From positions 62,001 through 126,000 of the forward strand of contig CP158635.1 of assembly GCA_050273025.1 (NCBI GenBank): a stretch of 64,000 nucleotides of DNA, written 5' to 3'. The notes beneath the pieces were generated by a model. The model had not been told where the DNA came from. It did not search any database and saw only the letters and a list, made by a program, of their open reading frames with translations. Of the stretch, positions 21,861 to 52,682 are shown one piece after another. Both the position numbers and the translations under genes were made by a program. The DNA is from Cenococcum geophilum. Lineage: Eukaryota. Within the stretch, counting starts at the first letter, position 1; the number at the start of each line of letters is the position of its first letter.

Positions 21861-22699
21861 GGAGAAGTTAAAGAAGTTAATAAAGATATAAAGATAAAGT
21901 ATAATATTTTTAAATTATATATTTGCCGGTATAGATACAGTTAATAAAATAAAGGAGTAAAGGGGCAGATTTTAATATTCTGCTAGAGAGCTTAGGCCTA
22001 TTACCAGCCTATTTAGGGTAAATTATAACAGATTGCCGTATTATCTTGCCGTTAGATGCGTAATATTAAGAATTCCTACTAATAAGCAAGCACTAGAGCT
22101 AATCTTTACGGGTAAGAGCGTTATAACTGCCTATAAAAACGTAAGAATTTAACCAATTTATATAGATATGGCTAACCTTTTCTGGCGATTTAGTAGGTTA
22201 ATACTACTTAAGCAGTAAGTGCTTAATAATTCTCTTCCCTCGTTAAGACGTACTTTAGAGCTTCTATTTATACCTAGTTAGCCTATAAATATACCCAAGA
22301 CGTAGAGTTAGTTTAATCGCGCTATTTCCGCCTTTTACTACCTAAAATCTCCCTTAGAGTATATTAGTTTAGGCAATAAGCTAATAAAGTCGTTTTATGT
22401 TTAAAACTTAAGGAGAGCTTTTATAGAGGAGCAATATAAGGCTATTCTATATATTAAGAAGCGATAATCGTAAAGATTGGCTATTAATTTAGCCCTAAGC
22501 GTTAATAGAGTTAATATACTCGATTGCGAACAGATAGAAAAAGCTCAGACAATAAAGGTAGAGATTATTACGAAAATTAAGCCTATTAAAGAAAAAAGTG
22601 CAGTAAATTAGAAGAGAAAGGCAAAAGAGGGGGGGGTTATTATACTACTCTGCTAATATAAAATCCGCTAAAATACGTATAGCTAGGCAGCCTCTTACT

Positions 22700-27884: not shown

Positions 27885-28099
27885 AATAATAACAAATGCG
27901 GCTCCTTATATTGTTATTAAGATTAGATAGGTATACCTAAAAAGGGCAGTAAATTGTATAACTAATCTAATGGCCGTAATCTGCTGCTAGCTATCCTAAT
28001 AACTAACCATAACGCCTTACTTCTTTTAAATTGTAAGTTAAATATACTAAGTAGCATATTATCCTAAGCGCTAATAGTATATAAAGCAGTATTATATCC

Positions 28100-29270
28100 T
28101 ACAGTACCTATTATAATTAATTTATAACCACCAAAACATTTATAAACCTTTAATCCCGCGTCCCTCGCTAACACTATATCTACCTAGCATAGTAATAATA
28201 TAATTAGATAGTATATATACTATAGAGGAGGCATAGTATAAGTCTATTAGTAAAACTCCTAGGAAGGATAAGCGGATTATATCCGGGTTTAGTATTAGCA
28301 GCGCTCGTTTATATAAGATTAAAGGGGTAGTTAAGGACATTATAAATAAGAGCAATATAATATCTATACGCTTCTAAGACTAAATAAATTACGCCATTTA
28401 AAGTAAGATTATAGCCAAAATCGTTAATTAAATCCTAGAGTCTAGTAACGCTCTAGTTAAATAGACTAAGGAAGTGGCCTAATATCTTCTTACTCGTACT
28501 TAGTTAAATATGCGTAAGAAAGCTAGCTGGGCTAGTGCTAAATCAGGACTTCGGTATAGAGCTACAAATTCTACTATAGGGTACCCTTATATAGAGCCTT
28601 AAAACGTATATTAATCTCTTTTACCTAAATATGTTAATAAATATAACGTTTAGGGTTTTATAATCTATATATATCGAGATCTAGAGAATATACCACGGTT
28701 TATAATTTATACAGACTTAAGTGCTAGTCTACTTTAAACTAACTTAGTAAAAGGGTGGATAAGTCTTTTAAATTTTCCTAAATTTCTTAATATTGCCTAG
28801 GACGCTAGAGTTAATCTAAAGACGGAGGAGTTATAGGTAGATATACTAATAATTATACTAGTTTAGAATGTGGGACTTTTAAAGTATATAATATAATAAA
28901 CGCTTAAAGCCTCTAAGGATATAATTGTTTTTGTAGTTGCGAATATACGCGGTATATAGTAGTAGTCCTTATAGCCTTAAATCTAATACTCTTTAGAGTC
29001 TTAATTATTCACTAGGAGTCCTACTTAAAAGGGTATATTAAAGCGGTCTTAATTAAGCTAAAACATTGATTTTAGGCAGGTAAAATATCCTAGGCGTATT
29101 AACCCTCGTTCTTAGATTACATATTCTAATATACTTCTAACTCCGCCTATTATACTAGTTATTTATAAAGAATATTTTTTATAACTAGAGGAAGCATATT
29201 TAGCGGCAATTTACTATAGCAAATTGCCCTTTAACGCGTGCGCGTTATATTTCATTAGTAAGAGTATTTA
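28100..29270 (+). pseudogene. RIP-degenerate ORF of the Plavaka element, unknown function, divergent from the transposase
   Basis: Readable frame RKDKRIISGF.ISSARL.EIKGVV...WTKEVA.HLLTRT..NMRKKASW after RIP correction; no family recognised. Confidence 0.35.
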
Positions 29271-29573
29271 CCTTAGGCTTATCCACTTTACTTTATACTC
29301 TTTACCTCTACTACCTTAACCAACTCTTGCACGGCGCCTCTACACAACATTAATTAGTTAATTAATTAGTTTAACCGCTAATTGCTGCTTTAAGCTACGA
29401 CTTGCTTCCTAAAACTACGGCAATCTGCCTAGCAGATTAACTCTTATAATTGGTTTATCTTACTTACCTACTTTAGACCTGCACCTTTACTAAACACTAA
29501 CTAGATTCTTCTACTTTTATATAACAACGCTCTACTCCTTCTTTATTCTATCTTAGTATCTTTATATATTATA

Positions 29574-32500
29574 ATAAAGGACTCGGATATTATAAAGGGA
29601 TAGAATATTAATACTTATCGCCTTAAGGAAATTAAGAGATACAATCCTAGATAACACATAAGAGGCCAGGCTTAAAAAATCCACGTTTTATACTCCAAAG
29701 ATAAAGTGCCACGCGATTAGTTTATTTAAAAGATTTCTAGCGACTTACCTAAGAAGGAACGTGCTTTAAACAGCTAGTTTAGATAGGCTATTATTCCTTT
29801 TATGTTATCCTAGAGAACTAATACTACTAAACGGCAAAATAATATAAAGTTAGAACCTAGAAGTTAGAGTTAAACCTAATTTAAACCTATAATAACGCTA
29901 GTATATACATTTGCTTCCAAGCCAATCTCTAAATTACACGGTTTTACATCACTAAATAAGCCGTTCTTACTTAAAAATATAACCTTTTAGTTTTAAAGAA
30001 TAAACCTAATTACCTAAAAGCACTGTAGAGCTTTATATAGTCTATAAATTTTAAAAGGCAATATAGAAACTCTAAGAGTTAAAGAAATTAGTCTCTGGCT
30101 ATTTTAAGAGGTTATAGCATTAGTAGGTTTTATTTTAGACAAGGATAAAATTACCTAGCTTAACGTGGTTACTAATAAAGAGGTTTATATTACCTAGTAA
30201 AGGCTATTATAAGCCGTATTTTAGTAGTATATACTATATAACGGGGGCAGAGTGGAATGTATACTTAAGAGTACGGATTATAAGTTCCTTTAATAATATT
30301 TAGCTATCTATATACTAATAATTGCAGCTAAGCATTTAATTATAAAAGTACCGTACTAATTACTAAATAAGTAGGGTATAAACCCTCCTAGAATTACCGA
30401 TACTCTAACCCACCAGTATTCGCGCACTAAGGCCGCACTTAAGAAACGGTAGAAGATTACGCCTAAGCCGATCTACAAGCACTTAGATATTAAGTTTATT
30501 AATAAAGACAGCGAGAATAAGAGCGATGCTTTACCTATCTTATTAATACGCAGCGGCATTCTAAGTCTACTAAGTCTAAAGAAACGTAATTATAAAAGGG
30601 AGTAACCTACTAGAGGTATTTATGGGTAAACTATAGTAAACCGCGGTAAGCCGCTAGGAATAGCTGTAATAATCCAATTATCTAGCCTATAGATAATCCT
30701 AATAATAATAGAGCACGGTAAGGGTAATTATAATACTCCCTAGAGCAAAACTACTTTATATTCCTAATTAGCTCAGACTCTATATAATAATTTAAACTCT
30801 ATATCCGTAAAAGCTTTCCTTAGTAAAACTATAGAAACTAATGCGATCTAAGATACCTTAGGTAAAAATGCGCTTAAGAATAATATAATCTAAGCTAAGG
30901 AGATATAGGTTATAATGCCTATTGCGTAAAGGTATAAGTATATAGTTATATAAAGTACATCTTAAATTAGACTAATATTAGCTCTTTTTAGATTTTAAGA
31001 GGCCGCTATAACTAAAGCAGGAGGTAAGGTTTAAGTAGTAAATATATAAACGTTCGGCTAAGCTATATAGAGTTCCTAAAAAGGCCGTCTTAATAAAGAA
31101 CCTGGTCCTTATTCCTAGTAATAGGGTTTAAATCTAAAGTTTAAATCATTCCTATACTAGCTGTATAGCGTATCTAAGATATTCCACTAAGAGCGCACGC
31201 AACTAAATAGTGGTGTTTTTGCTAATGGTATAGGAATCAAAAAAATCGTAACCGCGTACTTAACTATTATTCTTAGTTACCACTATACTATAAACCTAGA
31301 CAAAGTAGCCACTAATTAAGCGGCTAGGAATACGAATTAGTATCTATAGAAGGATAACTAAACTAAAGACGCTAAGTGTCCTAGCTAGGACAAGATACCT
31401 TTTCTATACTTATATATAAATTAAAACGCTATATCTATAATATAAAGACAGTATAGTGCAAATTTAGTTATTATAATTCCAAGTATAATTACTAGTTAGA
31501 GAGATAATTATATCTTATTATTTAAGGACTTTACGCTTATAATAAAAGAGTAGACGCTACTACGGTTTATAATGTGCCATAAGACAGAAGATATATCTAA
31601 AGGAATAGCGCGACTAAACCCTTAGGAATAGCTTTAAATGGGGACTTTAGGGGACTAGTTAGATCACGATATAATAAATAATAGTCAGACTTTTATGGGT
31701 AAAAAAAAACGCCCTACTTATAGTTCTTTAACGGCCCCCTATAGAAGTATACAGACCATTATAACTACGCTCTTTAGCAGAATCTTATAGGATAAGTTTT
31801 ATAATAAAAAAAATTAAGAAACTTATATTAACTAATTCCTTTATTCTTAAAAAAAAAGTGGTACCGCTATACCTAAGATTCTTTACCTAGGCTATTTCTA
31901 GCATAGTAATAGAGAATAGTGTTATAGATATATGCTGGTTTATTATAAGCGCCCTTAAAGATATAGATTGGGCAACCGCTTAAGCTAACCTAGTATTTTT
32001 AGAAAATATACGTTTGCGGAAGTTAATAAAATAGCTAAACTATAGACCCAATTTTAAAGCAGGGAAGGAGTAACCCTAAAAGTGCCTTGCAGTTTACGAT
32101 ATATAAAGAATTAGTTAAGGTTAGTGGCCTAATTCCCGTAAATTTTCTTATTCGCCGTAATAGGGATACTATTAACTTTAATAACTAAAAACTAAAAGCT
32201 GTCCCAGGCGAGCTCTAAATTTAATATATAAAGTATAATTATAAAACTAAAGAACTTAAATTCCTATATAGTATAGAAGGTGCAATAGTGTTAGAAATAG
32301 AAGAGGTATTTTAGCAGAAAATAGTCAAATGGAGAGAAGATGGTTCTCCTACTGGGAAAAAACTAGCACAAATGGCCAGCAGCTCCTTAAGCAGCTACTT
32401 TACGTGCTATAATGCAGTAATAACGCCCGGGTTACTTTTATAGAAGGATAGATTTAATAAGGATCTTCCGGATAATAAAAAAAATAAACGTCTAGTCTAA

Positions 32501-33030
32501 TACTATACCAACGCAGTTAAAAATCCTATTAAAAGTATCTTAGATTAGAATAAGGAGGAAATTCTTTATAACGACGCGAAGTTTAAGACACTTTTAGCTA
32601 TCTATAAAGAAATTATAGCAGCACTATATATTAAAGACTATTGTAGCTAAATTTTTATTTATTAGGGCGGTATATATACTAGTAAGTAGTAAAACACTCT
32701 ATCTTTTTACCTCTTAATAATAGCACGCTTAACTAGAACTCTAAGTTAACACTTATTTTAGGCTTTAATTACTAAATATAGTAAGGATGCCGTTGTATGC
32801 CTCCCTAGAGGAACACTACTAAAGTAAAAAGACTATATAATCTATAACTTATAGAAGTAGCTAAACGGACTATAAATTCTCTTATAATTTCTAAAGGCTA
32901 TTACAGAGGGTGTTACTATTAACGGCTTCCTGTATTAAAAGTGGAATTTTAAATAAGCTTAAGTTTAAGAAGAATGTAGATATAAATAGGCTTAGAAATT
33001 TAAAGAAGCAGCTAATGCAAATGTTATAGA
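29574..33030 (+). pseudogene. SNF2-family helicase/ATPase, copy 1, with long N-terminal extension; internally deleted
   Basis: FPYQL, GGVFADGMG.GK (31209-31247), motif Ia LVI.IPS.I..W, RILWDEFH.EKN (31791), WAISG..MENG, FLIRR, HELICc start (KAITEGVT); introns near 30931-30992 and ~32680-32760; motifs V-VI missing. Confidence 0.8.
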
Positions 33031-33161
33031 TTATAGTAGTGATATATTTTTAATCCTTTTAGCGCGGAATTAGGTAATACGCTAGGTAGTTTACTGTAAA
33101 TTCTTTTTTAGTGGAAGAAGTATAACAGACTATTATTTTTAGAATTAGGTAATAGAATGGG

Positions 33162-36100
33162 TGTTATAGCTTAAATAAATGCCTCTAAACCAAAGCTTGA
33201 ACGAATACTGTATTACAAAGATACTAAGCTAAAGAAAAGGAAAAGGGGTTGCTAGGACCGATGTAAACAAATATATAAAGTAAGCCGCTAAGGCGCTAGC
33301 TTTAGGCGGGCTAATTATAAGTCGGCAGAATATGGTAGAATTTAGCAGGTAACGTGCGATAGCGCCGTTATATTACCCCCCTCTTTAAAGAAAGCCTGCC
33401 CTTAGGCTTAGTTAGAAATAGGGTAGTACTAGGCTTATAAACATAGGATTATAAAATATAAGATAAGGAGATAAAGGGGATACGAGTATGTCTAGACTAA
33501 GTATAAAGGGCGATTATAGGCTAAGTGGAAGCACTAGGCTAGAAAGAGTAGCCGCTAAAAGTCTTAGCACGGATTTAACTAATTAGACAACTTTAACCGG
33601 TGGTCAAAGTTCCTAGATATTTAATATTTTACGGTACTGGCAGAAAACGGCAGAATATAGCAGAATTTGGCAGATAGCTGTATTAGGGCTTTAAGGCGTT
33701 TTTATCCCTATATTCTTCTAGTAACTTATTATCTTTATTATACTAGCATTCTATCTATTCGTCTAGGTACTTTAGGGGTTTAGGCGTATTAGAGTATTAG
33801 TTATAGAATTCTTTAAGCTTTTAGGGGCAGCCTATAAAGTTCTACATAGGGTACTAGGTTAGGTTAGGATTATAGCCCTTCTATTAGATACGGTATTTTA
33901 GCGTTCCCTATACTATCTTATAGGCCAGTATTTTATTAACCTTTTATTCGCTGTCACCGTTTACTTAAACTAGTAGGGGAGGCTTATTCTTTTATCTAGG
34001 TAATAGGTTGTTTATAGCTTTCTATAACTTATCCGGTAAGAAGATAGGGTAAACCTTAATTAAATCTAGGAGCTTTATCTTGTATAAGTTGCCTATCTTC
34101 TTAAGAACCTTATACGGTCCTGCTATTTAGTAGTCTAGCTTACGGCTAGGTCGTTCGGTCTTCTAATTCCTTATTATAACCTAGACTATATCGCTAGGGG
34201 TAAAATCGGGCTCTTGACGGTATTTGTTCGCCTGCTGTTCTATTAACCTTTAAGCTTTTTTTAGGTTCTTATAGGCTACTATCTAGGCCTCCTCTAATTA
34301 TTTAGCGTACTATTAGGCCTTAGTATAGGATAGCTTCTCTTATATAGTCTAGGGTTCTTCTAGCCTTTTTTAGTTAAAGCTTATATGGGGTAAGTATTTT
34401 ATTTCTAGCTAAATTAGGGCAAACCCTATGGAGTTATGGGGTAAGGTTGCTTGCACGTAGTTTATTAAGGGTAGTAGTTTAGACTAGTTGTCCTAGAAAT
34501 AGTTAATAAAGGGCCTAAGCCTCTAGTCTAGGTACTAATTTATAATCTCTGTCTAACCGTCTATCTAGGGGTAATAAGCTGTAGAAAGCTTTAGCTTAAT
34601 GCCTAAGATTTAGGTAAACTTATTCTAGAAGGCCGATATAAACTATAGTCTATAATTAGATATAATAGTATCTAGTAGTCCGTAGATTTGGTAGATATAA
34701 TAAACATATAGCCAGGCTACCTCTTTAGCATCAATGTTCTTATAACAGGGAATTAAGAACGGGCGTTTACTAAAGCGGTCGACTATAACTATAACCATAT
34801 TGTATCCGTTACGGTCCCTAAGTAGTTTATAAAAGTTTATAAAGATATACTACTAAGGGCGCTCTAGTATTAGGAGTGGCTTAAGTAGTCCTAGGGTCTT
34901 ATCCTATGGGATTATAGCTCTCTAGCAGTCTTCGCAGTTCTATATATATTAATCGATATCTATAACCATTCTTGGCTAGTAGTAGCGGCAGTTAATGATT
35001 TTACGGGTCTTATTCTTGCTAGGGTGTGCCGTAGAGACTTAGTAATAAGCTTTGCGAATTAGTTCGGTCCGTAAATTATCGACGTTAGGGATTATAAGCC
35101 GCTCCTAGTATAAAAGCAATCCTTCCTCTATCTTAAAATCGGGGTCTCCTTTCACGGCTTATTCGCGGAGGGCCCTTAGGGTATTAGTTATGCGGTTTGC
35201 AGTTAGGAGGCAGTTAATTAGCCCTATTAGCTTATCTAAGGACTCCTCTATTAGTGTTAGCTTGTTTTGCTAGGAGTCTAGCTCCTTAAGGATCCGCGGG
35301 TCAAGCTGTTTTGGATAGAGGAGGGCGCGCATCTAATATTAGGTCTTTAGCTTATCCTAGGGTCCTATATCTTGTTCTCTTTGGGTTAGGGCATTAGCCT
35401 TAGAGTTTTACTTACTAGAATAATATATAATCGTAAAGAAGAATTAAGAGAGTATTTCGGCCTACTAGGCCTATTATTTAGTAAGCTGCTTTATAGTTAT
35501 AAAGTACTCTAGGGCTTTATAATCTATATATATCTTAATCCGGGAATTTGTACCTTTAAGCTCTGCGCGCTATTAGGAAAGTAATTAAATAATAGCTAGA
35601 ATTTCTTTATCGTGTACTTTGTAGTTATACTTAGCTAGGTTTATTATCTTTAAGAAGAAAGCTATAGGGTACTATTCGCTATCTGGATATAACTATAATA
35701 GAATTCCCGCTACGACCCTATTAGAGGCGTCCGTTTCTAGCATTAATTTAAGGTCTAGGTTATAGTAATAAAGGATTAGGGAAGAGATAAGCCGATCCTT
35801 TATCTCTTTAAAGGCTTTTATACAGCTATTATTAAAGATAAAAGGCGTGTCCTTCCTAGTTAGTTATATGAGAGGTTTTACTGTAATTCTGTAGTTATAG
35901 ATAAACCAGTAGTAGAAGTTGCAGAAGCTAAGGAAGGACTAGATTTCTTTTACCATATAAGGGGGCTTCTAGTTACGGATTGCCTCTACCTTCTTAGGGT
36001 TAACCTTAATTCCTTTTATAGTCACGATAAACCTAAGGTATTTTATACGTTTTACCCCAAACTCGCATTTCTTAATATTAACTTGTAAGCCTATGTTCCG

Positions 36101-39100
36101 TAGTCTCTCTAGGACCTTTTTAATATAAACTTAATACTTAAGTTCGTTGTCTAAGTATATAAGAATGTCGTCTAGGTATGCCGTGCAGAATTCGTTAAAG
36201 TAATTAAAAAGAACGTCATTTATATACCTTTGGTACGTAGCCGGTCCGTTTATTAGTCTAAAAGGAAGAACTTTATATTTATAGGAACTATAATAGGTAC
36301 GGAATGTTGTTAAATCTTCGGATATAGGGTCTATCCTAATTTGGTAGAAAGCTTAGCGGATATTAAGTTTGGTAAAGATCTTTACCTAGCTTAGATATAT
36401 AAGGGTCTCGTTAATTAAAGGAATAAGATACCGGTTCTTTTAAGTAATAGCATTTAGCTTTTAATAGTTAATATAAAAACGAAGGCCTTTATTAGGCTTT
36501 TTACGAATAGGATAGGGGAAGTAAAAGGGGCTTAACTTAGCTTAATAAACCCTTTATCTAGGTTATTAATCAAGTACTACTTTATTACTTTTAGCTTATC
36601 CGTTAATTAATAGTAGAGGGGGCTATAGCCTAGCAAGTTATTGGCTTCTAATTAAATCTTATAATTGTATATTTAGTAGGGGGGTAACTTATCTAAGGCC
36701 GCCTTTAAGAATGCATCCTTGTAGTTTATATAAATAGTAGGAAGAAGGCGTTTAACTAGTTCCTTATCGGTTTCCTTAGCTAGCCTTTCCTCTCTATTAT
36801 TAATAATTCGGTTAATCTTATATAGGCTTATTATAAAGACCTTATTGTCCTTCCGGTATATATTAAAGTGGAACGCTATAGCGCTAATTACGGCGATATT
36901 TATAGTAGGGGGGTTACCTAATAATAGGGGCGTATGTAACTTTAGGGACTTCTAGGGTACTAGCGTTATCATTACCCCTTTTAGCTCCTGTTATATTTTT
37001 TAGAGGTTATCCCTTATATCCTATTAATACGTTCTTTTCCATACCGGTTAGATCTGTGCGATTTAGACGTCGTCTATATTACTATCTATCCCGCTTCCGT
37101 ATATAGAGTCCTCTTTAAACGTAGCGCTTTAGGAGAGTATCTTTATCGGTATAGAGTTCTTTCTAGCTTTATAGCGGGCGTCTTCTTAGGTAAAGGCTAG
37201 GTCACGGGCCTAGACATCCTACTAGTAGGTAGGGTCAGCCCTTACGGCTAGTGTCTTGCGGTTAGTTTAAATCTCCTTAATAAAGGAGGGCAACCTTGGT
37301 CTATTCTCCGGCTAAATAAACCATTTTTATTACATATTTAACCAGATATTAAAATAGGACATCTATTTTCGTCTAAGGATTATATTATAAGACCCTAGGT
37401 CTAGGATGCAAAAGGGGATACTATATTGGTGTTATCCGTTAAGAGCGATATGCAACTTTAAGATATAGGTAATAGGCCGACCGGCTTAGCCGTTATAGCC
37501 TTTTACCTAAACAGGCTTTTCTAGTTAGATAGCTTCTACATTTAGAAACTTAGCAATATTATTCATATAGGCAGTATTTATAAAGGCGAAGCTATTTACT
37601 TTAGTGTTAATAAGGGCGGTTATATTAACTCTATATCCATTTTAAGATACTATATATAGAAACGTAAAATACTTTCCACCTATTAATTAACTAAGATTAA
37701 TCTCTTTAAGATCGATAGGGTACCCTAGGGGGGAGTCTTTCCCTAGGGTTTTTCTTTTCCTAACTTATCTAACGTTTCTCCTTCCTCTATCTCCTTAATA
37801 TTACCTATATCTTTTAGCTCCGGGCAGGACAAGGTAAAGTGACCCTACTTATTATAGTTAAAGCACGTAGCCGAGGCAAGGTTAATTAGAGTATTATAGT
37901 AAATACTAGTTAATGGTGTAGTATGTAACTGGTTAGGCAAGGCTTACTAGTATATAGTTATAACCGCCTTTAATAAAAGAGTAGTTATAACTTATCTTCC
38001 TACTCTAGCTCCTATAAGTATAGCTTGCGAGTTCCAATCGTTACGGAGTTACTTCTACTAATTAGGGCGGGCGTCAATCCGCTTTAGTTTTAAGTCTAAT
38101 AATAGGCAACAAGCTATAAGTCTTTTATAGGTTGGTAGGTTATCTAAGGTTATAGCGATCTTTTTTTATAGCTAGATTATTAGCTTATTATATAGGTCTA
38201 ATTAGTAGTTCTTAAGGGGGACCTAGCCTTCTCCTATAAGGTATAAGAATTAAGTCTAGAATTCGGTAAAGGGTTAGTTTAGTTTCATTATTAGGCAATT
38301 ATAGTTATAACAGGCATCCCGTACTTTGTTTGGGTTAACGTAGATAGCCGCTAGGTGCTATATTATCTTATTAATAAATATAAATTAGACAGGGGAGTCG
38401 TCCTTAAACTTGGCTTAAAGGTGCCATTAGGCGTCCCCAGTAGTTCAACTAAAGAGGTAGAGCATTTTAGCTTCTTTAGAAAGGAAATAGTTATAGTTAA
38501 CGCGGAGCTTTCCTTATACTTAAATCCTCTAATTCTTAAAGGTAGGGTCTATCCCGTTAGATAGTAGTAGGGGGTTAAGGAGCTTAACGGACTTTAATTA
38601 CTTTATTATTGTATCTATACTCCCTAGTATATTATATTTAGTAGAGTAAATAAGTCGGCTAGGGCTTTAAGAAGGGAAAGCCGGGCTATTTTATAGGGCC
38701 GTAAGGCTTTCTAGGATCTCTTATAAGGTCTTTTATATATTTCTTACTTTAAGATAATCGGCTTCCTAGCTAGCTATAAGGGCATAAATCTACTCGCGTA
38801 CGTCTATAACGTTATTATTATCTTTAATTTCTAATCCTAATTAGATCTTAGGTTCCTCTTAGGTAAAGGCAGCTCTCTTAAATAAGCTTACTTTAAGTGC
38901 TATTGTTAGCTTCCTAAGGTTTATCGGTATTATATACTTTAGTTTCGATTTCGGGGGTATAGGTCTAGTCCTATTTAGCTTATAAGGTAGGATATTATCT
39001 AGGCCTTCCTAGGCAATATAGAGTTGTTTTAGTGTCTAAGTATAGCGCGTTAATGCGTCGTTGTAGACGAAGTTTCTTTGGGGTAGGATATTATTAAGGC

Positions 39101-39344
39101 CTTCCCAGATAAGGTAGGGAGAGCTTAGTATAATATCACGGCTTAAATAAATGCCTCTGAACCGAAGCTTAAACGAATGCTATATTACGAAGATACTAAG
39201 CTAAAGAGAAGGAAAAGGGGTCGCTAAGACCAATATAAACAAATATATAGGGTAAGCCGCTAAGGCGCTAGCTTTGGGCGGGCTAATTATAGGTCAGTAG
39301 AATATGGCAGAATTTGGCAGGTAATGTGCAATAGCGCCGTTACA
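33162..39344 (-). mobile_element. Full-length Gypsy A family copy (chromovirus), 6183 bp
   Basis: 211-bp LTRs at 33162-33372 and 39134-39344, same family as 15333-15543; TSD atggg/atagg; gag, RT YLDD (~36170), RNase H, integrase, chromodomain; PPT next to the 3' LTR. Confidence 0.93.
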
Positions 39345-39349
39345 ATAGG

Positions 39350-40510
39350 CAGTATTCTGCAGTTTTACAGTTAGTAAAAGGCAAATACTAGATTTTTTTA
39401 TTATAGAATTAAGTAATATACTCGGCGATGTGCCGCAGTTTTACGGCTAATGGAAGGTATATACTAAGTTATTTTTTATAAAACTAGGCAATATATCGGT
39501 AATATACTGCAATTCTTTTATTAATAAGAGAAGTGTACTATTTTGCTATTTAAGGAACCGGGTAATACGCGGGTAATATATTATAGTGCTCCGTTAATAA
39601 AAGAAGCTGCTAGCTTGCGATATGGGAACCAGGTAATATGCGAGCTAATATTTAGAATACTCTACTTATAAGAGTAGCCTATAGCTTACGATATAGAAAA
39701 TAGGTAATATATAATCGGATATATTACAGTGCTCTATTAATAAGAGATATCTGCTAGCTTATAATATAGGAACTAAGTAACGTATAATTAGATATATCGT
39801 AGTGCTCTATTAATAAGTGGCGCCTATTAGTTTACTATTTAAGGATCTAAGTAATACGCTAGGCTATATATTGTGGTGCTCTATTAATATAGTAAGTCTG
39901 CTAGCTTATAATATAGGAACTAGGCAATATACGAGCTAATATATTAAAATAATCTACTAATAGGCGACGACTACTAGCTTGCAATTTAAAGAATTAGGTA
40001 ATATACCTAGCAATATACGGCAACTTCGTACTTAGTAATAGAAGTTTACTAGCTTACCGCTTAAGGAACTAGGTAGTGTGCTAGGCAATATATAGCAATT
40101 TCGCGCTTAGTAATAGAAGTTTGCTAGCTTATTACTTAAAGAACTAGGTAATATACTAGGCAATATATAGCAATTTCGCGCTTAGTAATAGAAGTTTACT
40201 AGCTTACCGCTTAAGGAACTAGGCGGTATGCCAGGCAATATATAGCAATTTCGCGCTTAGTAATAGAAGTTTATTAGCTTACCACTTAAGGAACTAGGCG
40301 ATATGCTAGGCAATATATAGCAATTTCGCGCTTAGTAATAAAAGTTTACTAGCTTACCGCTTAAGGAACTAGGCAATATATAGGCAATATATAGTAATTT
40401 CGCGCTTAGTAATAGAAGTTTATTAGCTTACTGCTTAAGGAACTAGGCGATATACTAGGCAATATAAGGCAATTTCGCGCTTAGTAATTAAAGTCTACTA
40501 GTTTACTTTT
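39350..40510. repeat. 75-bp tandem repeat array downstream of SNF2 copy 1 (starts ~33060, split by the Gypsy insertion)
   Basis: Units start at 40021, 40096, 40171, 40246, 40321, 40395 and 40470 (caatttcgcgcttagtaatagaagtttactagcttaccgcttaaggaactagg...); more diverged units upstream. Confidence 0.9.
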
Positions 40511-40949
40511 TAAGGTAGTAATTATATTGGATTAGAGCTTCTGGCTAAAGTTATAATTAATATAAACTTTAGATCTAACTATTTAATTAGTAAAGCGGAG
40601 TAAATATAAAGTTAATATAGCTCTTAAAGCTTTAAATCTATACCTAATTTAAAATATAGCTAAGGAAAAATAAATTACTAGTAACTCTATGCTTAATATA
40701 AGGCTAATTAGTAACTCCTAAAGCTCTACTACTAACTCGGTGTCTATTAAGGGGTGCATTAGCTATAAAATCTAGAACACCCGCTTATTCTACTGCTGTT
40801 CTCTTTATACTAATATACGGCTTATTCTAGATATATACCCTAATCGCGATACTATAGTCGCGTTTATATACCTTATAATATTATTATCTTAACCTTCTTA
40901 ATTACGATAAGCCTGTTTCCGGGGGGTTTTTATAGAAGGTAGGTAAAGA

Positions 40950-42620
40950 TATAGGAAACACCGATTGTAGAAAGGATGTTAGTTAAGGAGGAGGCTCTAT
41001 TACTATACTAAAGTAGGAAGTCGTAATAGAGGCTTAGTAGTATAGAGGGGCTCTTTTAAATTACTTACTAACGTTAATTACGCATTAATATACAAAGTTA
41101 AATCTAGAGCCTTATTCTGGAGCCTTACTAAATAATTAACTAGATTATAAATTTAAATAAGCTATAGTAGTAGCCGCTACTAATTACAAAACGGGTAATA
41201 CTAAAAGGCGTATAGATTAAACAGTTATAATATAGAGGCGATTTACAACCGAATAGTGAGGAGCTTTAAGCTCTATATCCCTTTGTCTAGTAAAAGAAAC
41301 TTTTTATATTAGGCGCTTTAGACGCTCCTACCTAGGTTAGTATACTGCGGGCACCCTAGCTAGCGTGATTTTATTAGCAAGCCTTACTAAAACGCGTTAA
41401 CTTATAATGCCGATAAAATGCTACGGAAGGCCACTACCTATATATATATATATTTGAGGAAGTTAGGCAAAAAGTCGTAATATATAATATTATAACTATA
41501 GGTTTCTACCCTTCCTTTATTAACCAGCTGCCGATTATATAGGATAATCCTCCATTAAAGTCTTCCCCTGAATTACTACCACCTATCCGCTTTATACGCG
41601 TTCTTAATATTAATAAAGATAAGCTTCCCTTTTAGATCTTACTACTAAATATTATCTATCTATTTATTACCTATTCTCTGCATTAGAACCAATTTCCCCT
41701 TAACTTAACTATATACCAGCCCTTAACCTATTTTTAAAGTAAATGTCGTAATAGTATATATACCAATAAGGAGTTATAGATATCTTACACTAATTGGTTA
41801 TTACAGATAAATAAAAACCCTAGGTATACAGCTACCCTAGCTAAGCGCACTAAGCGTCCCTATATTAAAAAGGCGTTATTAAAGAATAGAGATAGGACTA
41901 CTAAGCTAGCTCTAAAGCCGCGAAAGAAAAAAGCGGCGGATAGTTGCTAAAAAGAGATTAGAGGGTTTCTAATTAAGTAGGAGAATAATAGTAAGGTAGC
42001 TAAAGCTATAAAAATAGCTTAGCTACCTGTTAAGATGCCTCTACTAACCCATTCTGTCCTACTAGCCGCTGGAAATGCCGCTAGACGTGGTCTAGAGAGA
42101 ACTAAGTTAAATAAAAACAGCGCCGCGGAGATGGCTGTTATAGAAACTAGAAAACTATAAAAGAGAGACCTCTTTAATATTATAAGTTAGATGATCAGTT
42201 ATATAAAGGAGGGGTAAAGTATTTTACAGACTACGTCACCCGCTAATTATTAGAATATTAAGAGTTTAAAGACAAAAATTAAGGAACTTTAAAAAGCTAA
42301 GAAGGCTTAAAATATATCAATCGTTAATCTAATCTGGGACGCTTAAGTAATAAAGTAGGACCATCTCTAAGGTTATAAAACTATATTTATAACTAACCAA
42401 AGCGCATAATAATGTAAATTAGAGAAAGGTAATGTTTTAAAAGCTTTTGGTAAAGGACTAGCTTAAGGTTATAAGGGAGGACGTACTATATACGCCAAAT
42501 AAGGTGTATTAAGTGCTATAAGTAGTTAAACGGTTTAACTAGCGGCTGTTTAATATAGAGGATTAATTAAGGGCGGTAGAGGAGGGCTTAAAGGAGGCTA
42601 TAGTAAAGGCTTAATTAGCT
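40950..42620 (+). pseudogene. RIP-degenerate ORF between the two SNF2 modules, unknown function
   Basis: Codon-like stretches (IEAIYNRMVRSFKLHIPLS...ALQTLLP; K/E-rich segment later); no family recognised. Confidence 0.3.
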
Positions 42621-45600
42621 TTACCTAGTCTCCTATTATAAAATAATCAAAATAATACGTAAATTCTATACTTAGCTAAGTTATTACCTTTTTATATAAG
42701 TAGCCTAGGTAGGGTTTACAAAGTTTAATAAACTAATAATTTAGTTTAGTTCTTAAATCTTAAAGATTATAACTATATAAGACTTATACTACCTAAGGCA
42801 ATCTACTACAAAATACCGCTAAACTTAGTATTCTGCGTATTCACTAGAACTTCTTAATTTACCTTGCTATTAATAAGCATTAAATGACAGCAATTTGCCT
42901 ACTAGTATTACTTAACTTTAATATCCACTTCCCCTAACTCTTTACCTCTACTACCTTAACTAACTCTCGCACGGCACCTCTACGCGATATTAATTAGTTT
43001 AACCGCTAATTGCTGCTTTAAGCTGTAACTTACGCCCTAAAACTGCGGCAATCTGCCCGGTTAATTAATTCTTATAATTAGTTTGTCTTACCTACCTACT
43101 TTAGACTTACACCTTTACTAAACACTAATTAGATTCTTCCGCCCTTATATAGCAACGCTCTACTTCTCCTTTATTCTATCTCGGTATCTTTATATATTAC
43201 TATAAAGAACTTAAATATTATAAATAGATGGAAAATTAATGCTCGTCGCCTTAAGGAAATTAAGAAGATAATCTTAGATAGTATAATAGAGGCTAGGCTT
43301 AATAAAGTCGTGTTTTATACTGCTAAAGATAAAATACTACGCGATAACTTTATTTAAAAGGTTCTTAGCAACTTACCTAAGAGGGAAGGTGTTTTAAAGA
43401 GCTGGTCTAAAGATACTATTATTACTTTAATGGTATCTTAGAGAACTAATGCTATAAAACGGTAAAATAAGTTAGAACTTAGAAGTTAGACTTAAACTAA
43501 ATTCAAACCTATAATAACGCTAGCGCCTACATTTACTCCTAAGTAAATCTCGGAATTACTAGGCCCTACATTATTAGGTAAGCCGCTTTTACTTAAAAAT
43601 ATAACCTTCTAATTGTAAAGAATAAACTTAACCACCTAAAACACCATAGAGCTTTATACGATTTATAATATTATAGAAGCTAACACAGAAACCCTAATAA
43701 TTAAAGAAATTAGTTTCTCGCTATTTTAAGAGATTATAGCATTAGTAGGGTTTAACTTAGACAAAGATTAAATTATATAGGTCGATATTAAATCCCATAA
43801 GGAGGCTTATATTACCTAGTAAGGGGCATTATAAGTCGTATTTTAGCGATGCATACTATACTATAGAAGTAAAGTAAAATTTATACTTAAGAGTACCGAT
43901 TATAAGTTCTTTTAATAACATCTAGCTATTTATATACTAATAATTACAGCTAAGCATTTAATTATAGAAATATTATACTAAATACCGCGTAAGTAAAGCA
44001 TAAACCCTCCTAGTATTACCAATACCCTAATTCGCTAGTCTTTACGCGGTAAGCCTATATATAAGAAACGGCGGAAGACTACGTCTAAGCAGACCCGCAA
44101 GTACTTAGAGTACTTAGATAATAAGTTCATTAATAAAGACACTAAAAGTAAGAGCGATGCTTTATTAACCTTATTAACGTACAGCAGCATTCTAAGTTTC
44201 TTAGGTTAGAAGAAACGTAGTTATAAAAGGAAGTAACCTGCTAGAGTATCTAAAGGCAAATTACGGCAAGCTACTAAGGACGGCCGTAGTAGTCTAGCTA
44301 TTTAGCCTATAAGGGGTCCTAACAGTATAGAGGAGAACGAAGACAATTATAATGCTCTCTAAAGCGCAACCGCTTTAGATCCTAAACTAGCTTAACTATA
44401 GGTTATAACTATAGATGATCTAACTAGTAATATTATACAAATTTCTACAGAAGATAATAACCTAGAAGAAGAGGCTTTTAAAGATATAATAAACGAAGCT
44501 AATAGGGAGATAGAGGCAGCTAATTGTATTAAGTAAAGGTATAGGCATATAAGCATATAGAGTACATCTTAAATTAGACTAACGTTAGCTTTTTTTAGAT
44601 TTTAAGAAGCCGCTACAGCAAAAGTAGGCGGTAAGGTTAAGAAAATAGAGCAGTAGATATATAAACGCTTAGCTAAGGTATATGGGGTTTCTAAGGGGGC
44701 CCTTTTAGGGAATAATATAGTCCCCGTTCCCTATAGATAGGGTTTTAATTTAAAGTTTAGAGCGTTCCTATACTAGCTATATAGTGTATCTAAGATATTC
44801 TACTAGAAATGTATAAAGCTAAATAATAGGGTTTTTATAGACGGTATAGGGACCGGTAAAATAGTAACCGTATACTTAACTATTGTCCTTAACTACTACT
44901 ATGCTATAAACCTAGATAAAGTAGCTACTATTTAAGCGGCTTAAAATGCTATTTAATATCTACCAAAGGGCTATTAAGCTAGCAGCGCTAAGTGTCCTAG
45001 CTAGGATTAAGTGCCTCTACTATACTTATATATAAATTATAACGCTATATCTACAATATATAAATAGTATAGTGCTAGCCTAGTTATTACAGTTCTATAT
45101 ATTATTACTACCTAAAGAGATAATTATATCTTATTATTTAAAGATTTACCACTCGTAATGTAAGCGTAGGCACCGCTAAGAGTTGTAATATACTATTTAA
45201 TAGTGGATGTTTCTCCGGGTATAGAGCAGCTAACTTTAAATAAGTGGCTAAAAATAGGAACGTTAGGAAACTAGACCGCCTATAATACTTTAAATACTTA
45301 TTAGGCTCTTATAGATAAAGCAAAAACCCCTTACCTATAGTTCTCTAATAGTGTCCTACTACTTAGAAAGGGCAATTCTTTAGTTAGTACCCCGGCCGCC
45401 TTAGTAATAAGATTTATTATAATTATAATATTTAAATGCCTAAAACAGCGTATTATTAACAACTTTATAATTACTAAAAGTGTTTACCGCTTCTTATTTA
45501 GCGGTAAGCAAGAAGATAAAGGTTAGCAGTTAGTTAAGACTACGTTTTTTAGTAGGGTTTTATAGGATAAGTTTTATAACAAGAAGAATAAAAAGACTAT

Positions 45601-46231
45601 AGTTAACCAATTTCTTTATTTCTATAAAAGTACTATACTAAAACGCCTTAAATTCTTTATCTAGGCTATATTAGGGACTCTAATAGAGAATAGTGTTATA
45701 GATATATGTTTGTTTATTATAAGTGGCCTTTTAGATCTAGATTAGGCAAGCGCCTAAGACAATAACATTTTTAAAAAATACACGTCCGTCAAAGTTAAAA
45801 AAAATAGTAAAGCTATAGAGTTATTTTTTAAAATAAGGAAAGAGTAACCCTAAAGGGGTCTTATAGTCTACGGTATATAAAGAATTAGTTTAAGTTGGCG
45901 GAGAAATACTTATAAACTTTAAAATTCGCTATACCTTAAATACTATTAGCTTTAATAGAAAAAAATTAAAAGTTATTTTAGGCGCGCTCTAAACTTACTA
46001 CCTAAACTATAAGTATAGAACTGTAGAAATTGAATTACTATAGGGCATAGAGAGTGCAATGACGTTAGAAATAGAAGAGGTATTTTAGTAGAAAATGGTT
46101 AAATAAAAAGAAGATGGTTCTCTTAAGGGGAACTAATCAGTATAAATAGCCGGTACCTCCTTAAGCACCTACTTTACGTGCCGTATTATAGTAATAATGC
46201 CTAAGTTACTTTTATGGAAGGATAGATATAA

Positions 46232-48384
46232 TGTAACCGACTACCGACACTGTGCTGAGACACAAGATTACCGCTTGGAAGGATCCAAGACTGCGTCAAC
46301 GCCACCCTATATATTGATTGCAGATCAATATTGCTTGCAGATCACTGTTCCCATTTCAGTTGCCTATCACCTTTTTATGTCTTATTTCCTCCACCTTCTT
46401 CGTGTATATATAGAGGCTTTAGAGCTGCATTTACAATTAAGTCGTTTACTCTTTCCTACACACTGCAAAGCTTATAGTTATAAGCCCGGATCGCACTGCC
46501 TGCTAAGCAATTACCTAAATCGCACTACCTGTTGCACTATCTTAATCTACTACCTTATTTAAGAAGTCACTACTTCTACCACCTTTACAAGTGTATTGAG
46601 CTTCTTCCAGGTACCTCTCTTGTACTTATAATTACCCTTAAATATTAAACGAACGGATAATTAACGCTAACGGACAATTAACGCTGACGGACGAACAAAC
46701 TAATGAATTAAATTAAAGCTTCGGAACGTTAAAATAAGGTTCTACTAAGACGCCAATTAGACCCTGCCTAACCTATTAAAATCCTAAAAATAACAACCAC
46801 AAATGAATTAAAAGTTAATCTCATCCTTAACGAGCCATCTAATTGGATCCTATAGTTCTTTATTATTTAAGATATAGCCAAAACGAATAAGATATGGCGA
46901 TATATTGACCCGTCCAAGAAGAAAGATAAGCTTCCAACGCTAGAACTACTGAAACGGCCTACACCAACGGACGTACGACCTATGGCTATATTAATAACCC
47001 AGCTAGAACAAGACCAATTCGCTATCTATAACTAGCTCTATTCCGAATACAAAGACGATCTCCGTATACACGAGAAGCGAGAATAGGCTATCAATAATAT
47101 CAGCAACTATATCGTTCGCTCGATGTTAGTAGCCTACCTTCCCCTTATTAACGGCCTAGATTCGGTCTACGAACGGCTTAAAGCACTTAAGAAAGCGCTT
47201 ACCCCTACCACCTTAGGTTAAAAGCACGACGTCCTTAATTAATACACGGCTTTAAAAGCCTATAATATAACACAGAGTATTAATAAATGGTTAAGCAGCT
47301 GGCGGAACATCTATAAACTTGCTAAGCAATTAGACCTACCAGACGTGCAAAGCTTTAGGCCTTACTACGACTTCGTTCAAGCAATTAAGCCTATCTCTTC
47401 TAGCTTCGTAGGAGCTCTAGAAGTAGACCTTATTCGCAAGGAACGCAAGGGTAAAGTAGCCCTATCTATTATTGATCTTATTAAGGAATTTAAGGAGCAC
47501 TATTATATGCAGCAACAAGCGTCTCCTACCACTACTGCTAACTACTCTGCATTTGCAACATTTTAAAATAATTCCCCTGTCTTACTAATAAAGATATGCC
47601 TCTGTAGTAAAGAACACCTATTTTAGAAATGCCAATATCTAATTAAGAGCCTAAGACCCTATGGGTGGGTACCTAATAAGAAAATATAACAACGAATTAA
47701 TAAAAAGCTTATAAAATATAAGAGACTTGCTGTTGCTATTAAGAGAGCATAAAAGGAGGCTTCCTAGAGGATGCCTACTACCACTATTAATGATTAGATT
47801 ATTGAGATCTGATTTCCTCTTTAAATACAGTCTCCTAAGAGGCTAGAGAGGACACCTCTTTAAATATAGTCTCCTAAGAGGCTAGAGAGGACATATCGTT
47901 AAACATAGTCTTCTAAGAGGCTGGAGAAGATACCTTTTAAATATAGTCTCCTAAGAGGCTATGGAGGATATCTCTTTAAACACAGCTCTATATCCAGAGA
48001 TATAAAGCTAGGAATAACCATCTTACCCTATTCCTTTGCTACTCCTAATTTGTATCCAAATTTCCTATTTTTTGATATAGTCTCCACCTTCATTTTTATT
48101 TTCTATAGCTTTAACTACACCGTTAAATCTGGGGGGGTGTATAACCGACTACCGACACTGTGCTAAGACATAAGATTACCGCTTGGAAGGATCTAAGACT
48201 GCGTCAACGCCACCCTATATATTGATTGCAGATCAATATTGCTTGCAGATCACTATTCCCATTTTAGTTGCCTATCACCTTTTTATATCTTATTTCCTCC
48301 ACCTTCTTCGTGTATATATAGAGGCTTTAGAGCTACATTTACAATTAAGTCGTTTACTCTTTCCTACATACTGCAAAGCTTACA
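46232..48384 (+). mobile_element. Gag-only non-autonomous Copia-type LTR element, 2153 bp
   Basis: 245-bp LTRs at 46232-46476 and 48140-48384; TSD TATAA; gttat(g)agccc primer-site motif; PPT ggggggg; gag ~46790-47810 (ILNEPSNW..WF..I...A....IWRYIDP; CLC.KEH...C); no pol. Confidence 0.88.
47817..47985. repeat. ~39-bp tandem repeat, about 4 copies, inside the gag-only element
   Basis: ctctttaaatacagtctcctaagaggctagagaggacac repeated. Confidence 0.85.
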
Positions 48385-49139
48385 TATAATAAGGATCTGC
48401 TAAATAACGACAAAATTAATATATAAGCGAAATTTCACGCAAAATTAATTAAATCTCCTATTAGAAGCATCTTAGATAAAAATAAGAAGGAAATTCTTTA
48501 CGGTAACACAAAATTTAAGGCGCTTTTAGTTATCTATAAAGAAGTTATATAATTAAAAAACGTCGGGGGGTATTATAGTAAGGTTATTATTGGCACTGAT
48601 TTTCTAACTATTAGGGCAGTATATATAGCAGTAAGTAATAAAACACTCTATTTTTTTACCTTTTAATAGTAGCTTGCTTAACTGGAACTCTAAGCTAATA
48701 CTTATTTTAGGCCTTGGTTACTAAATATAGCGAGGACGCTGTTATATATCTCCCTGGAGGAATATTGCTAAAGTAAAAAAACTATATTATCTATAACTTA
48801 TAGAAGCAGCTAAGTGGACTATAGATTCTTTTATTACCTCTAAAGGCTATTATAGAGGGTATTACCCTTAATAAGGTATACTTTATTATGCTTATAGAGC
48901 TTAATCTATTCTTTAGTAAATAGGAATAGTTTATATACCACATTTACTAAATTAGCTAAAAAAAACCCTCTTATAATAGCATATATTTTGTATAACACGG
49001 CTTCCTGTATTAAGGTTAAAATTCTAAATAAGTATAAGTTTAAAAAGACCGCCGCGGATAAGATATTAGATGTAGATATAAATAAGCCAGGGAGTTTAAA
49101 GGAGTAGCTAGTAGAAGTGCTCTAGCGAGGTATTTTTAA

Positions 49140-49930
49140 TATTTTAGCACAGAATTAGGTAATATGCTAGGCAATTTGCCGCAAAGTTTTATCTTATAAA
49201 AGAAGTATACTAGGCTATTATTTTAAGAATTGGGAAATATAGTAGGCAATATACCGCAGTCTTATAGCTAATGGAATGCATATGCTAGGGGTTTTTTTTA
49301 GTGGAATAAGTAATGTTTCTTAGTAATATACTACAGTCTTACAGTTAATAGAAGGCATATTAGGTTATTTTTTATAAAATAGGGCGATATATCGGTAATA
49401 TGCCGAAATTCTTCTATTAATAAGATAAGTTTACTATCTTACTATTTAAGGAGCTAGGTAACGAGCGACCGGATATATTATAGTGCTCTATTAATAGGCG
49501 ATAACTACTAGCTTACTATTTAAGGACCTAAGTAATACGCTAGGCGATATGTTATAATGCTTTATTAATATAATAAGTCTACTAGCTTGCGACGTAGGAA
49601 CTAGGCAAATACGAGCTAATATATTAGAATATTTTACTAATAATAGGCGTCGCTTACCAGCTTGCAATTTAAAGAATTGGGCAATATACCTAGCAATATA
49701 CTGTAACTTCATGCTTAGTAATAGAAGTCTACTAGCTTACCGCTTAAAGAACTGGGCATATACTAGGTAATATACAGCAATTTCGCGCTTAATAATAGAA
49801 GTTTACTGGCTTGCCGCTTAAGGAACTAGGCGATATGCTAGGCAATATACGGCAATTCTATACCTAATAATTGGAGTATACTAGGTAATATATAGCAATT
49901 TCGTATTTAATAAGAGAGCTCTACTAGCTT
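49140..49930. repeat. 75-bp tandem repeat array downstream of SNF2 copy 2; subterminal to the Plavaka right end
   Basis: Same unit as 39350-40510 with fewer copies. Confidence 0.85.
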
Positions 49931-49987
49931 ACCCCTACGGTTATACTTCCTATACATTAGTTATAGTAGCTAGTTATAGCGGCTAGG

Positions 49988-50203
49988 CATTAGGATTTTT
50001 TTTAGGCACGTTGTTACAGCTAAAAGTTAGGGTCTGCTTAACTTAGCAATTTATAGCGATTTACTACAAATACGCAGGCTACCCATATATGTTTATAGCA
50101 AATCGCTATAAATCACCGCAAATCGCCAAAATCGCGACTTAAGCGAGTTAAGCAGACCCCAATTTTTAACTGCAATAACGTGCCTAAAATTTTTTTCCTA
50201 ATA
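49988..50203. repeat. Palindromic right terminus of the Plavaka element (TIR in both orientations)
   Basis: cattaggatttttttt aggcacgttgttacagctaaaagttagggtctgcttaac pairs with gttaagcagaccccaatttttaactgcaataacgtgcctaaaatttttttcctaata. Confidence 0.88.
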
Positions 50204-50205
50204 CT

Positions 50206-52677: not shown

Positions 52678-52682
52678 ATACC

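Follow-up and report, generated by a model that had tools for sequence, protein, structure and literature searches.

We found, with high confidence, that positions 19046 to 50203 of the window (the whole stretch of DNA analysed here, 64,000 nucleotides from Cenococcum geophilum) are one dead giant transposon of the PlavakaB lineage, inactivated by RIP, with two SNF2-family units and a Plavaka transposase inside it. The element's own genes are a minus-strand Plavaka DDE transposase and, in divergent orientation, a plus-strand tandem pair of paralogues for putative SNF2-family ATPases, each with an array of 75-bp repeats behind it. The SNF2 genes are very probably best explained as part of this single RIP-killed element, in which they may have had an accessory role. 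A sequence-only reading of this DNA had proposed SNF2-family ATPase genes carried as transposon cargo. The family assignment was borne out by a de-RIP consensus and block scans, which place motifs I, Ia, II, III, V and VI in collinear order on the plus strand; the cargo claim is strongly supported, since a single pair of PlavakaB-type TIRs, flanked by a target-site duplication (TSD), encloses both units and the transposase, and the gene order recurs in other copies. The features, in window coordinates, are:

19046..50203, no strand given: giant PlavakaB-type DNA transposon, 31,158 bp (~20,977 bp without its three nested insertions)
19044..19045 (left) and 50204-50205 (right): target-site duplication CT, 2 bp, from comparison of the flanks with the uninterrupted LTR retrotransposon
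19046..19085, plus strand: left TIR, tip TATCAGG (pre-RIP CATCAGG), aligned to the reverse complement of the right end
19086..24400, no strand given: left arm, without recognisable gene
24463..25295, minus strand: Plavaka transposase core PF18759, broken over two frames and RIP-degraded
25920..27753, minus strand: nested pogo/Fot-like transposon, unmutated by RIP, TA duplication, GC 0.447
29279..33161, plus strand: SNF2 unit A, part 1 (motif I at 31212, Ia 31455, II 31779, III 31885, V 32876)
33162..39344, no strand given: nested LTR retrotransposon, LTRs ~207 bp, 5-bp duplication ATGGG/ATAGG
39522..40506, plus strand: 75-bp tandem array 3' of SNF2-A, found with TRF
40507..42920, no strand given: spacer from the A array to unit B, without recognisable gene
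42921..46231, plus strand: SNF2 unit B, part 1, with a long N-terminal region (motif I at 44828, Ia 45071, II 45554, III 45659)
46232..48384, no strand given: nested small LTR element, 241-bp LTRs of 97% identity, 5-bp duplication TATAA
48390..49125, plus strand: SNF2 unit B, part 2 (C-lobe), with a motif IV-like stretch in the 48391 frame and a V-VI block (48825-48983) in the 48390 frame
49407..49884, plus strand: 75-bp tandem array 3' of SNF2-B, found by tandem-repeat analysis
50164..50203, minus strand: right TIR, tip ..CCTAATA

The transposon split one inverted copy of an LTR retrotransposon into halves at 15333-19045 and 50204-52680, which abut exactly at 35633/35634 of an intact copy of that retrotransposon; the insert between them measures 31,158 bp. 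The dinucleotide CT is present once in the uninterrupted copy and on both sides of the insert. The TIRs, located by means of seeds in RY space, are ~40 bp long and differ from each other mostly by transitions. Evidence for the left terminus and the TSD comes from this single copy, while the right terminus is identical in three metagenome copies with three different, unrelated flanks (L116, L117 and L118; the tip reads ..CCTAATG in L117 and L118). Near the right end, an internal palindrome pairs 50000-50045 with 50144-50189. The main text describing PlavakaB gives termini of CATCA..TGATG and a TSD of 2-3 bp (Kojima 2025, PMC12730594); the tips found here, TATCA..TAATA, are RIP-mutated forms of that motif, each departure from it being C>T or G>A. 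The element thus has the PF18759 domain, the termini (read through RIP) and the TSD length (here 2 bp) of PlavakaB. The earlier proposal that it had landed in a chromovirus nest stood as far as insertion into an LTR retrotransposon is concerned; the chromovirus identity found no support, Pfam being blank on the plus frames of the surrounding split retrotransposon.

The transposase core was recognised by Pfam in two frames (E 7.7e-15, 55.4 bits, and E 4.6e-10, 39.7 bits; cut-off 26.3), and the gene extends upstream across the pogo insertion, toward ~29000. In pogo-free copies 25914-25917 is joined to 27754, a junction that is unbroken in metagenome copy L122, where the left arm also runs on into the transposase. 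Six-frame Pfam searches of the left arm gave nothing significant; their sole match under the E 0.1 cut was a sub-threshold Plavaka hit (E 0.024, 14.3 bits, ~24463-24564) corresponding to the transposase tail. The pogo/Fot-like element carries DDE_1 (E 6.7e-30) and HTH_Tnp_Tc5 (E 5.1e-11) domains by Pfam and has 46-bp TIRs of 98% identity. The LTR retrotransposon at 33162..39344 is missing from copies L119 and L120, and the small LTR element at 46232..48384 from L116, L117, L118 and L120. The pogo-like element and both LTR elements invaded the giant Plavaka element after its own insertion.

The two nested LTR elements interrupt two RIP-degraded paralogous units, A (29279-33161 and 39350-40506) and B (42921-46231 and 48390-49884). 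Similarity between them begins abruptly at 29279/42921; a search for TIRs at these boundaries found none, and both are internal points rather than element ends. RIP indices were 1.68 for TpA/ApT and 0.45 for (CpA+TpG)/(ApC+GpT). Aligned over 4605 bases, the units are ~76% identical at the nucleotide level, their differences comprising 780 transitions and 327 transversions. RIP cannot produce transversions, so the 327 observed indicate that both paralogues were long retained inside the element. Judged from its motifs, unit B appears to have held the full SNF2 set, in order, until RIP; its motif IV-like stretch and V-VI block lie in different frames, implying a frameshift or an intron between them. 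Unit A is a diverged paralogue without motif VI: in-frame deletions removed 53 codons from the interval between Ia and II, and another 42 that included motif VI. Some finer details of the sequence-only reading fared less well: the "Cys-rich insert" after the motif I region comprises 54 residues with only 3 Cys, and the two-copy consensus reads NFxIRR where "FLIRR" had been noted. Within the A array, TRF reported 7.1 copies at 87% identity (39972-40506), and units further upstream are more degenerate. The spacer has no Pfam match in six frames and is unique inside the window, and it is kept at 87-90% identity in L116, L118, L119, L120 and L123.

Our data indicate that this arrangement is a property of a family. 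An exhaustive profile search recovered 42 fragment clusters of other copies; 25 of the 41 compared were nearer to B and 16 nearer to A. Had the closest homologues been single-copy host genes unlinked to Plavaka, the cargo claim would have failed; every relative found was instead a copy of the same repeat. Searches of metagenome contigs returned 13 loci, with nucleotide matches of at least 150 bp in 10. Loci L125-L127 (57% identity over 27 residues, no nucleotide match) were dropped as probable chance. Across the metagenome copies the order is left arm, transposase, SNF2-A, 75-bp array, spacer, SNF2-B, 75-bp array and right end, and L122 runs from left arm through transposase to SNF2-A with the pogo insertion absent. 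The junction between the transposase 5' end and SNF2-A was present in 3/3 loci reaching that point (L119, L120, L122), that between spacer and SNF2-B in 5/5 (L116, L118, L119, L120, L123) and that between A array and spacer in 2/2 metagenome loci, these copies being paralogues of one family at 87-90% identity and not independent lineages. In contigs of 3 DNA runs (at least 85% likeness), summed depth was alike over the transposase (1292-1614, X1) and SNF2-A (1358-2244); where variant sites were noted, 13-30 distinct contigs lay over each, with 2154 transitions versus 135 transversions among the differences. The element belongs to a multi-copy family whose complete gene arrangement moved together.

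What the SNF2 genes did for such an element can be proposed in outline; the sequence-only reading had suggested that the element may have encoded its own remodeler, with which it would reach heterochromatin or escape from it. The transposase would cut and paste the element, and the SNF2 protein may have been an accessory ATP-driven DNA translocase that aided so long an element in chromatin. It might have removed nucleosomes from the element ends or from the target, or counteracted silencing in the way proposed for TET/JBP in other Plavaka. The 75-bp arrays are candidate binding sites of the SNF2 protein or the transposase. That the SNF2 genes had any selected accessory function is a conjecture to which we give slightly less than an even chance. 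Its most serious competitor, which we consider rather unlikely, is that a host SNF2 gene was taken up once, duplicated inside the Plavaka family and then carried passively, contributing nothing to the element's life cycle. Copy A lacks motif VI and 53 more codons, yet A-type fragments are multi-copy (16/41), so that an intact A was not needed for amplification, and the searches yielded no intact relative on which selection could be tested. Such passive carriage fits poorly with a unit B that retained every motif in order until RIP, with the prolonged maintenance of both paralogues that the A/B transversions record (327 in 4605 bases), and with the retention of the full arrangement in every copy seen. 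A bolder form of the accessory role, to which we give little credence, would see a giant fungal Plavaka lineage with its own chromatin-motor module, in which a catalytically complete SNF2 ATPase, a non-catalytic partner without motif VI and cognate 75-bp loading or binding arrays mobilised the ~21-kb element into silent chromatin or out of it, or prevented its silencing. If true, this module would be a motor-protein counterpart to the TET/JBP passengers of other Plavaka.

These proposals presuppose that the units encode SNF2 proteins, an assignment whose support comes from a de-RIP consensus of many copies, block scans that allow for RIP and a language-model look-up. The protein consensus combined the window copies, 41 database fragments and 6 metagenome copies, and the reference HMM, which is bacterial, was built from 30 proteins with full-length matches to PF00176. 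The Q/I/Ia segment scored 19.1-20.3 bits (iE ~1e-8 at Z=1), a level reached by 0/300 shuffles (shuffle maximum 1.1). Scores for the II-III segment (4.9 bits, iE 3e-4) and motif VI (2.7 bits) were small and were likewise reached by 0/300 shuffles; motif IV gave no signal with this bacterial HMM. The matches are collinear along the HMM, which scored RapA at 26.3 bits, Mfd at 0.0 and RecG at -2.7. SNF2 proteins typically carry the signatures DExH-x2-KN, SGTPxEN and RxxRIGQ, and natural fragments of other copies read WDEFY or WNEFH and LGTPMEN.

The block scan, ungapped and RIP-aware, covered six frames of the whole window (~127,900 positions, register of +-2 codons). Motif I of copies A and B ranked 1 and 2 of 127,882 positions, and the V-VI block of copy B (53 positions) ranked 1 of 127,684, 13.6 bits above the next. 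Ranks for the two copies were 33 and 398 for Ia, 174 and 182 for II, and 62 and 2202 for III. Short-block scans taken alone were noisy, with many chance matches in AT-rich DNA. From HMM bits and block ranks together, the N-lobe motifs Q, I (GxGKT) and Ia point to SNF2 membership, as do motifs II (DExH..KN) and III (sGTPxxN), whose signal is weak yet collinear. In the ESM-Atlas, the best named clusters for fragment P0003 were SNF2-rel_dom (PF00176), at ranks 1-3 and 6 with scores of 0.87-0.88, which are below 0.9 and serve as a lead only.

Searches with degraded sequence returned much less. Pfam reported no SNF2 domain (PF00176 SNF2-rel_dom, PF00271 Helicase_C) in raw translations of A and B (X at stops) at either E<=0.1 or E<=1, nor in any of the 42 database fragments at E<=1 (0/42), and raw six-frame searches of A, B, spacer and left arm, with the plus frames of the LTR retrotransposon, recovered pogo and Plavaka domains alone. 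That natural sequence yields no match at the Pfam gathering score is expected of RIP-degraded DNA with 29-34% GC. Nothing was found in PDB sequence searches (phmmer/hmmsearch) with raw B and the fragment profile, or when phmmer compared the consensus with just three E. coli proteins, RapA, RecG and Mfd; hhalign of full-length profiles gave a probability of 2.8%. Gapped RIP-aware Smith-Waterman alignment of single copies did no better than codon shuffles, and a DNA de-RIP consensus of 7 copies, translated over whole frames, still had 56 stops in the coding frame, with HMM scores <0. The exhaustive profile search found no intact relative of the SNF2 units among 1.84 billion representatives, and protein word searches with P0003 (longer) and the B C-lobe (shorter) gave no matches and no intact relative.

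The blank Pfam and PDB results on natural sequences, together with the ease with which short blocks match by chance in AT-rich DNA, are what would be seen if the motifs were a chance product of the de-RIP reading or belonged to another SF2 helicase family. We regard this as very improbable, given top-ranked motif I and V-VI blocks at the predicted collinear sites, a Q/I/Ia score of 19-20 bits far above the shuffle maximum, an HMM that separates RapA from Mfd and RecG, and PF00176 as the best named ESM clusters. The SNF2 units might instead be a separate repeat, or a host gene that was duplicated and happens to lie beside a Plavaka transposase in a transposon nest, but this is hardly credible and already contradicted: the transposase adjoins only copy A in the window, and no TIR marks the abrupt start of A/B similarity, but one TIR pair with a TSD encloses both units, the order from transposase through A, array, spacer, B and array to terminus recurs in other copies, and depth is level over transposase and SNF2.

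Accessory genes are rare in eukaryotic DNA transposons, and those known so far, TET/JBP, SET and VANC, target epigenetic marks. The fungal PlavakaB elements described in the main text of PMC12730594 share with this giant transposon a PF18759 transposase, CATCA..TGATG termini, a 2-3 bp TSD and an accessory gene directed at chromatin or at epigenetic marks. There the accessory gene is TET/JBP; the element described here has two SNF2-family genes with 75-bp arrays, measures ~21 kb and shows no TET/JBP. That main text contains "SNF2" 0 times and "helicase" once, in reference to Helitrons; similar families may be present among its supplementary sequences. According to the available text of a preprint, giant Plavaka of red algae reach 17-19 kb with several accessory genes, PAG1-3 (bioRxiv 10.1101/2025.02.11.637652), resembling the present element in size, in gene number and in tandem arrays adjoining an accessory gene, which are proposed there as binding sites of that gene's product. 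Their passengers differ (N6-methylase/SET, ParB-like/2OG oxygenase), and the lone mention of "SNF2" in that text concerns host gene families unconnected to Plavaka; the present element, unlike the red-algal ones, has a fungal host and was killed by RIP.

CACTA/EnSpm elements belong to a related transposase clade (CMCT, as named in the main text of PMC12730594) and likewise have subterminal repeats, large size and extra genes; CACTA/EnSpm sensu stricto was ruled out, the termini here not being CACTA..TAGTG and the TSD being 2 bp, not 3 bp. VANC of VANDAL (as cited in the available text of bioRxiv 10.1101/2025.02.11.637652) and TET/JBP (main text of PMC12730594) share with the role proposed for the SNF2 genes the concept of a transposon-coded factor acting on its own chromatin, through proteins unrelated to the SNF2 units. 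In the literature available to us we found no description of an SNF2 passenger in Plavaka, and the passages there that name Plavaka together with a helicase draw no such link. An SNF2 motor carried as a two-gene module in a TIR-bounded Plavaka would add ATP-dependent remodelling to the means by which transposons may act against or within chromatin, and giant Plavaka, so far described in red algae, would extend to a RIP-active fungus. The exact ends and the gene order provide a handle for seeking active relatives in other fungi. In one RNA run (12% read, different strain label), 102 reads matched the locus, with next to none on the transposase and SNF2 units and most on the pogo-like element and the LTR retrotransposon.

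Two SNF2-like genes, units A and B, lie in the same orientation within the giant PlavakaB-type transposon, alongside a transposase that is itself interrupted by a smaller element.

29279-33161 and 39350-40506, same orientation as B: unit A, split by a 6.2-kb LTR retrotransposon (self-comparison)
42921-46231 and 48390-49884, same orientation as A: unit B, split by a 2.15-kb LTR element (self-comparison)
~24463-25295, minus strand, divergent from A: Plavaka transposase domain PF18759 (Pfam 55.4 and 39.7 bits, cut-off 26.3)
25920-27753, inside the upstream transposase part: pogo/Fot-like transposon (DDE_1 E 6.7e-30; HTH_Tnp_Tc5; 46-bp TIRs at 98% identity; TA duplication)

We compared a de-RIP protein consensus (per column, the residue able to yield the others via C>T or G>A) with a reference HMM built from 30 bacterial proteins matching full-length PF00176, a bacterial reference for a fungal host. 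The segment spanning helicase motifs Q, I, and Ia scored 19.1-20.3 bits (iE ~1e-8 at Z=1; maxima of 300 shuffles, 1.1 and -1.5), while II-III and VI scored 4.9 and 2.7 bits, each above 300/300 shuffles. The three matches were collinear on the HMM (positions 481-549, 598-645, and 878-892); motif IV gave no HMM signal in the consensus. Among E. coli controls, RapA scored 26.3 bits, Mfd 0.0, and RecG -2.7. A consensus-free, RIP-aware scan marginalised codons over possible pre-RIP ancestors and ran ungapped HMM blocks across six frames of the window (register ±2 codons). It placed the motif I block of A (31212) and B (44828) first and second among 127,882 positions, and the 53-position V-VI block of B (48825) first of 127,684, with the runner-up 13.6 bits lower; blocks Ia, II, III, and V ranked from 10 to 2202 across the whole window. 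These results agree with most of the SNF2 motifs proposed in the sequence-only reading. The insert it placed after Walker A and called Cys-rich, between I and Ia, has only 3 Cys among 54 residues.

Several other comparisons were negative: the gapped, single-copy form of the RIP-aware test gave no significant SNF2 score, hhalign over full lengths returned 2.8% probability, and a DNA consensus of seven copies, translated as whole frames, had negative HMM scores. With stops set to X, raw translations gave no Pfam match to SNF2, and PDB sequence searches matched the units to no structure. When 1.84 billion representatives were searched exhaustively with a profile, no intact relative came up; the 42 matches were all short (32-239 aa), RIP-degraded pieces of other copies, and none of them had an SNF2 match in Pfam at E<=1. 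WDEFY/WNEFH and LGTPMEN occur among these natural fragments, and an ESM-Atlas look-up of one (P0003) gave PF00176 as the best named clusters (0.87-0.88, under the 0.9 line). Judging from sequence, we conclude that A and B are remnants of SNF2-family genes, B apparently once complete and A predicted to be catalytically crippled.

Relative to B, unit A has two in-frame deletions, of 53 codons (motif Ia-II interval) and 42 codons (motif VI gone). The units share 76% identity over 4605 aligned bases, with 780 transitions and 327 transversions. Since RIP mutations are exclusively transitions, A and B were already diverged paralogues before RIP. A ~75-bp repeat array closes both; the similarity edges at 29279/42921 had no TIR partner. 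A frame change within 48640-48743, between a motif IV-like stretch and the next 'YLPGG..' stretch, is present in both units and would fit either a short intron or a frameshift common to them.

Plavaka elements were reportedly first described by Iyer et al. in 2014. The decisive observation on the ends of this one came from comparing the window with itself in purine/pyrimidine space, which RIP leaves unchanged: 15333-19045 and 50204-52680 are halves of one LTR-retrotransposon copy, adjacent at 35633/35634 of an intact copy. The 31,158-bp insert between them starts TATCAGG.. and ends ..CCTAATA, with ~40 bp of inverted repeat behind each tip (differences mostly transitions), and is flanked on both sides by CT, which is single in the uninterrupted retrotransposon. 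With RIP undone, the tips become CATCA..TGATG, identical to the PlavakaB termini given by Kojima 2025 (PMC12730594), where TSDs are 2-3 bp, a size that includes the CT duplication. Net of three nested insertions, each with its own duplication (3/3: TA, ATGGG/ATAGG, and TATAA), the element measures ~20,977 bp. The right subterminal region (50000-50189) is palindromic, with 46-nt arms perfect in purine/pyrimidine space, and resembles the left subterminal 19046-19430 in direct orientation.

Both units and the transposase thus lie inside one TIR pair, and their order recurs in metagenome copies, in agreement with the earlier proposal of SNF2 genes as Plavaka cargo. Scanning metagenome contigs with P0003 yielded 13 loci, 10 of which match the element at nucleotide level over at least 150 bp (67-93% identity). 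One (L122) runs from left arm through a transposase without pogo to SNF2-A; two (L119, L120) run from transposase-5' through SNF2-A without the LTR retrotransposon, array, and spacer to SNF2-B, which is uninterrupted by the small LTR element in L120 (L119 stops within B ahead of that site). Spacer precedes SNF2-B in L116, L118, and L123, the array also being reached in the first two, and L116, L117, and L118 share a terminus, ..CCTAATA or ..CCTAATG, beyond which their flanks are unrelated to one another. Junctions were kept wherever a locus reached them (3/3, 5/5, 2/2, and 3/3). Contigs of three DNA runs, placed on 24300-39500 at >=85% likeness, had similar summed depth over transposase and SNF2-A, with 13-30 distinct contigs over each noted variant site, joints bypassing the pogo element, and 2154 transitions versus 135 transversions. 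Among 41 database fragments compared, 25 were closer to B and 16 to A. Given this evidence from junctions, depth, and fragments, the canonical element has both paralogues and multiplied as a unit into many copies. Every copy seen is dead.

The likeliest role of the SNF2 product is that of a putative accessory DNA translocase, which would serve transposition or anti-silencing of this very long element; the main rival is a captured gene without function. Among the papers covered, 'Plavaka' and 'SNF2' co-occur in a single one, where SNF2 stands in an unrelated sentence, and passages containing both 'Plavaka' and 'helicase', within part of the co-occurring literature, leave the terms unconnected. 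In red-algal Plavaka (bioRxiv 10.1101/2025.02.11.637652) arrays adjoin PAG3; by analogy, those of 75 bp that follow the SNF2 genes here are candidates for binding sites.

Apart from a few GC-rich islands, the window consists of nested AT-rich repeats (~30-35% GC). In A and B, TpA/ApT is 1.68 and (CpA+TpG)/(ApC+GpT) is 0.45, versus ~1.0 and ~1.15 in GC-rich parts; the pattern in the units is classical RIP. Islands at 2001-4000 and 10001-14000 (50-54% GC, normal indices) are presumably ordinary genes at the nest border.

Further rearrangements were seen at two metagenome loci: L121:185-4896 holds two partial SNF2-B units with arrays, head to head, in an inverted duplication meeting near 2563-2579, and in L123 a ~7.1-kb insertion (1388-8483) interrupts another SNF2-B copy at the equivalent of window 43882. 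The small LTR-bounded element (46232-48384; 2.15 kb, 241-bp LTRs at 97% identity, TATAA duplication) contains short open frames, and the window has at least two further stretches akin to it (57593-60072). The pogo/Fot-like element retains ~0.45 GC and normal RIP indices though surrounded by RIP-ruined DNA, and it draws more RNA reads than any other part of the mapped stretch (102 reads, from 12% of one run); it may be young or still active.
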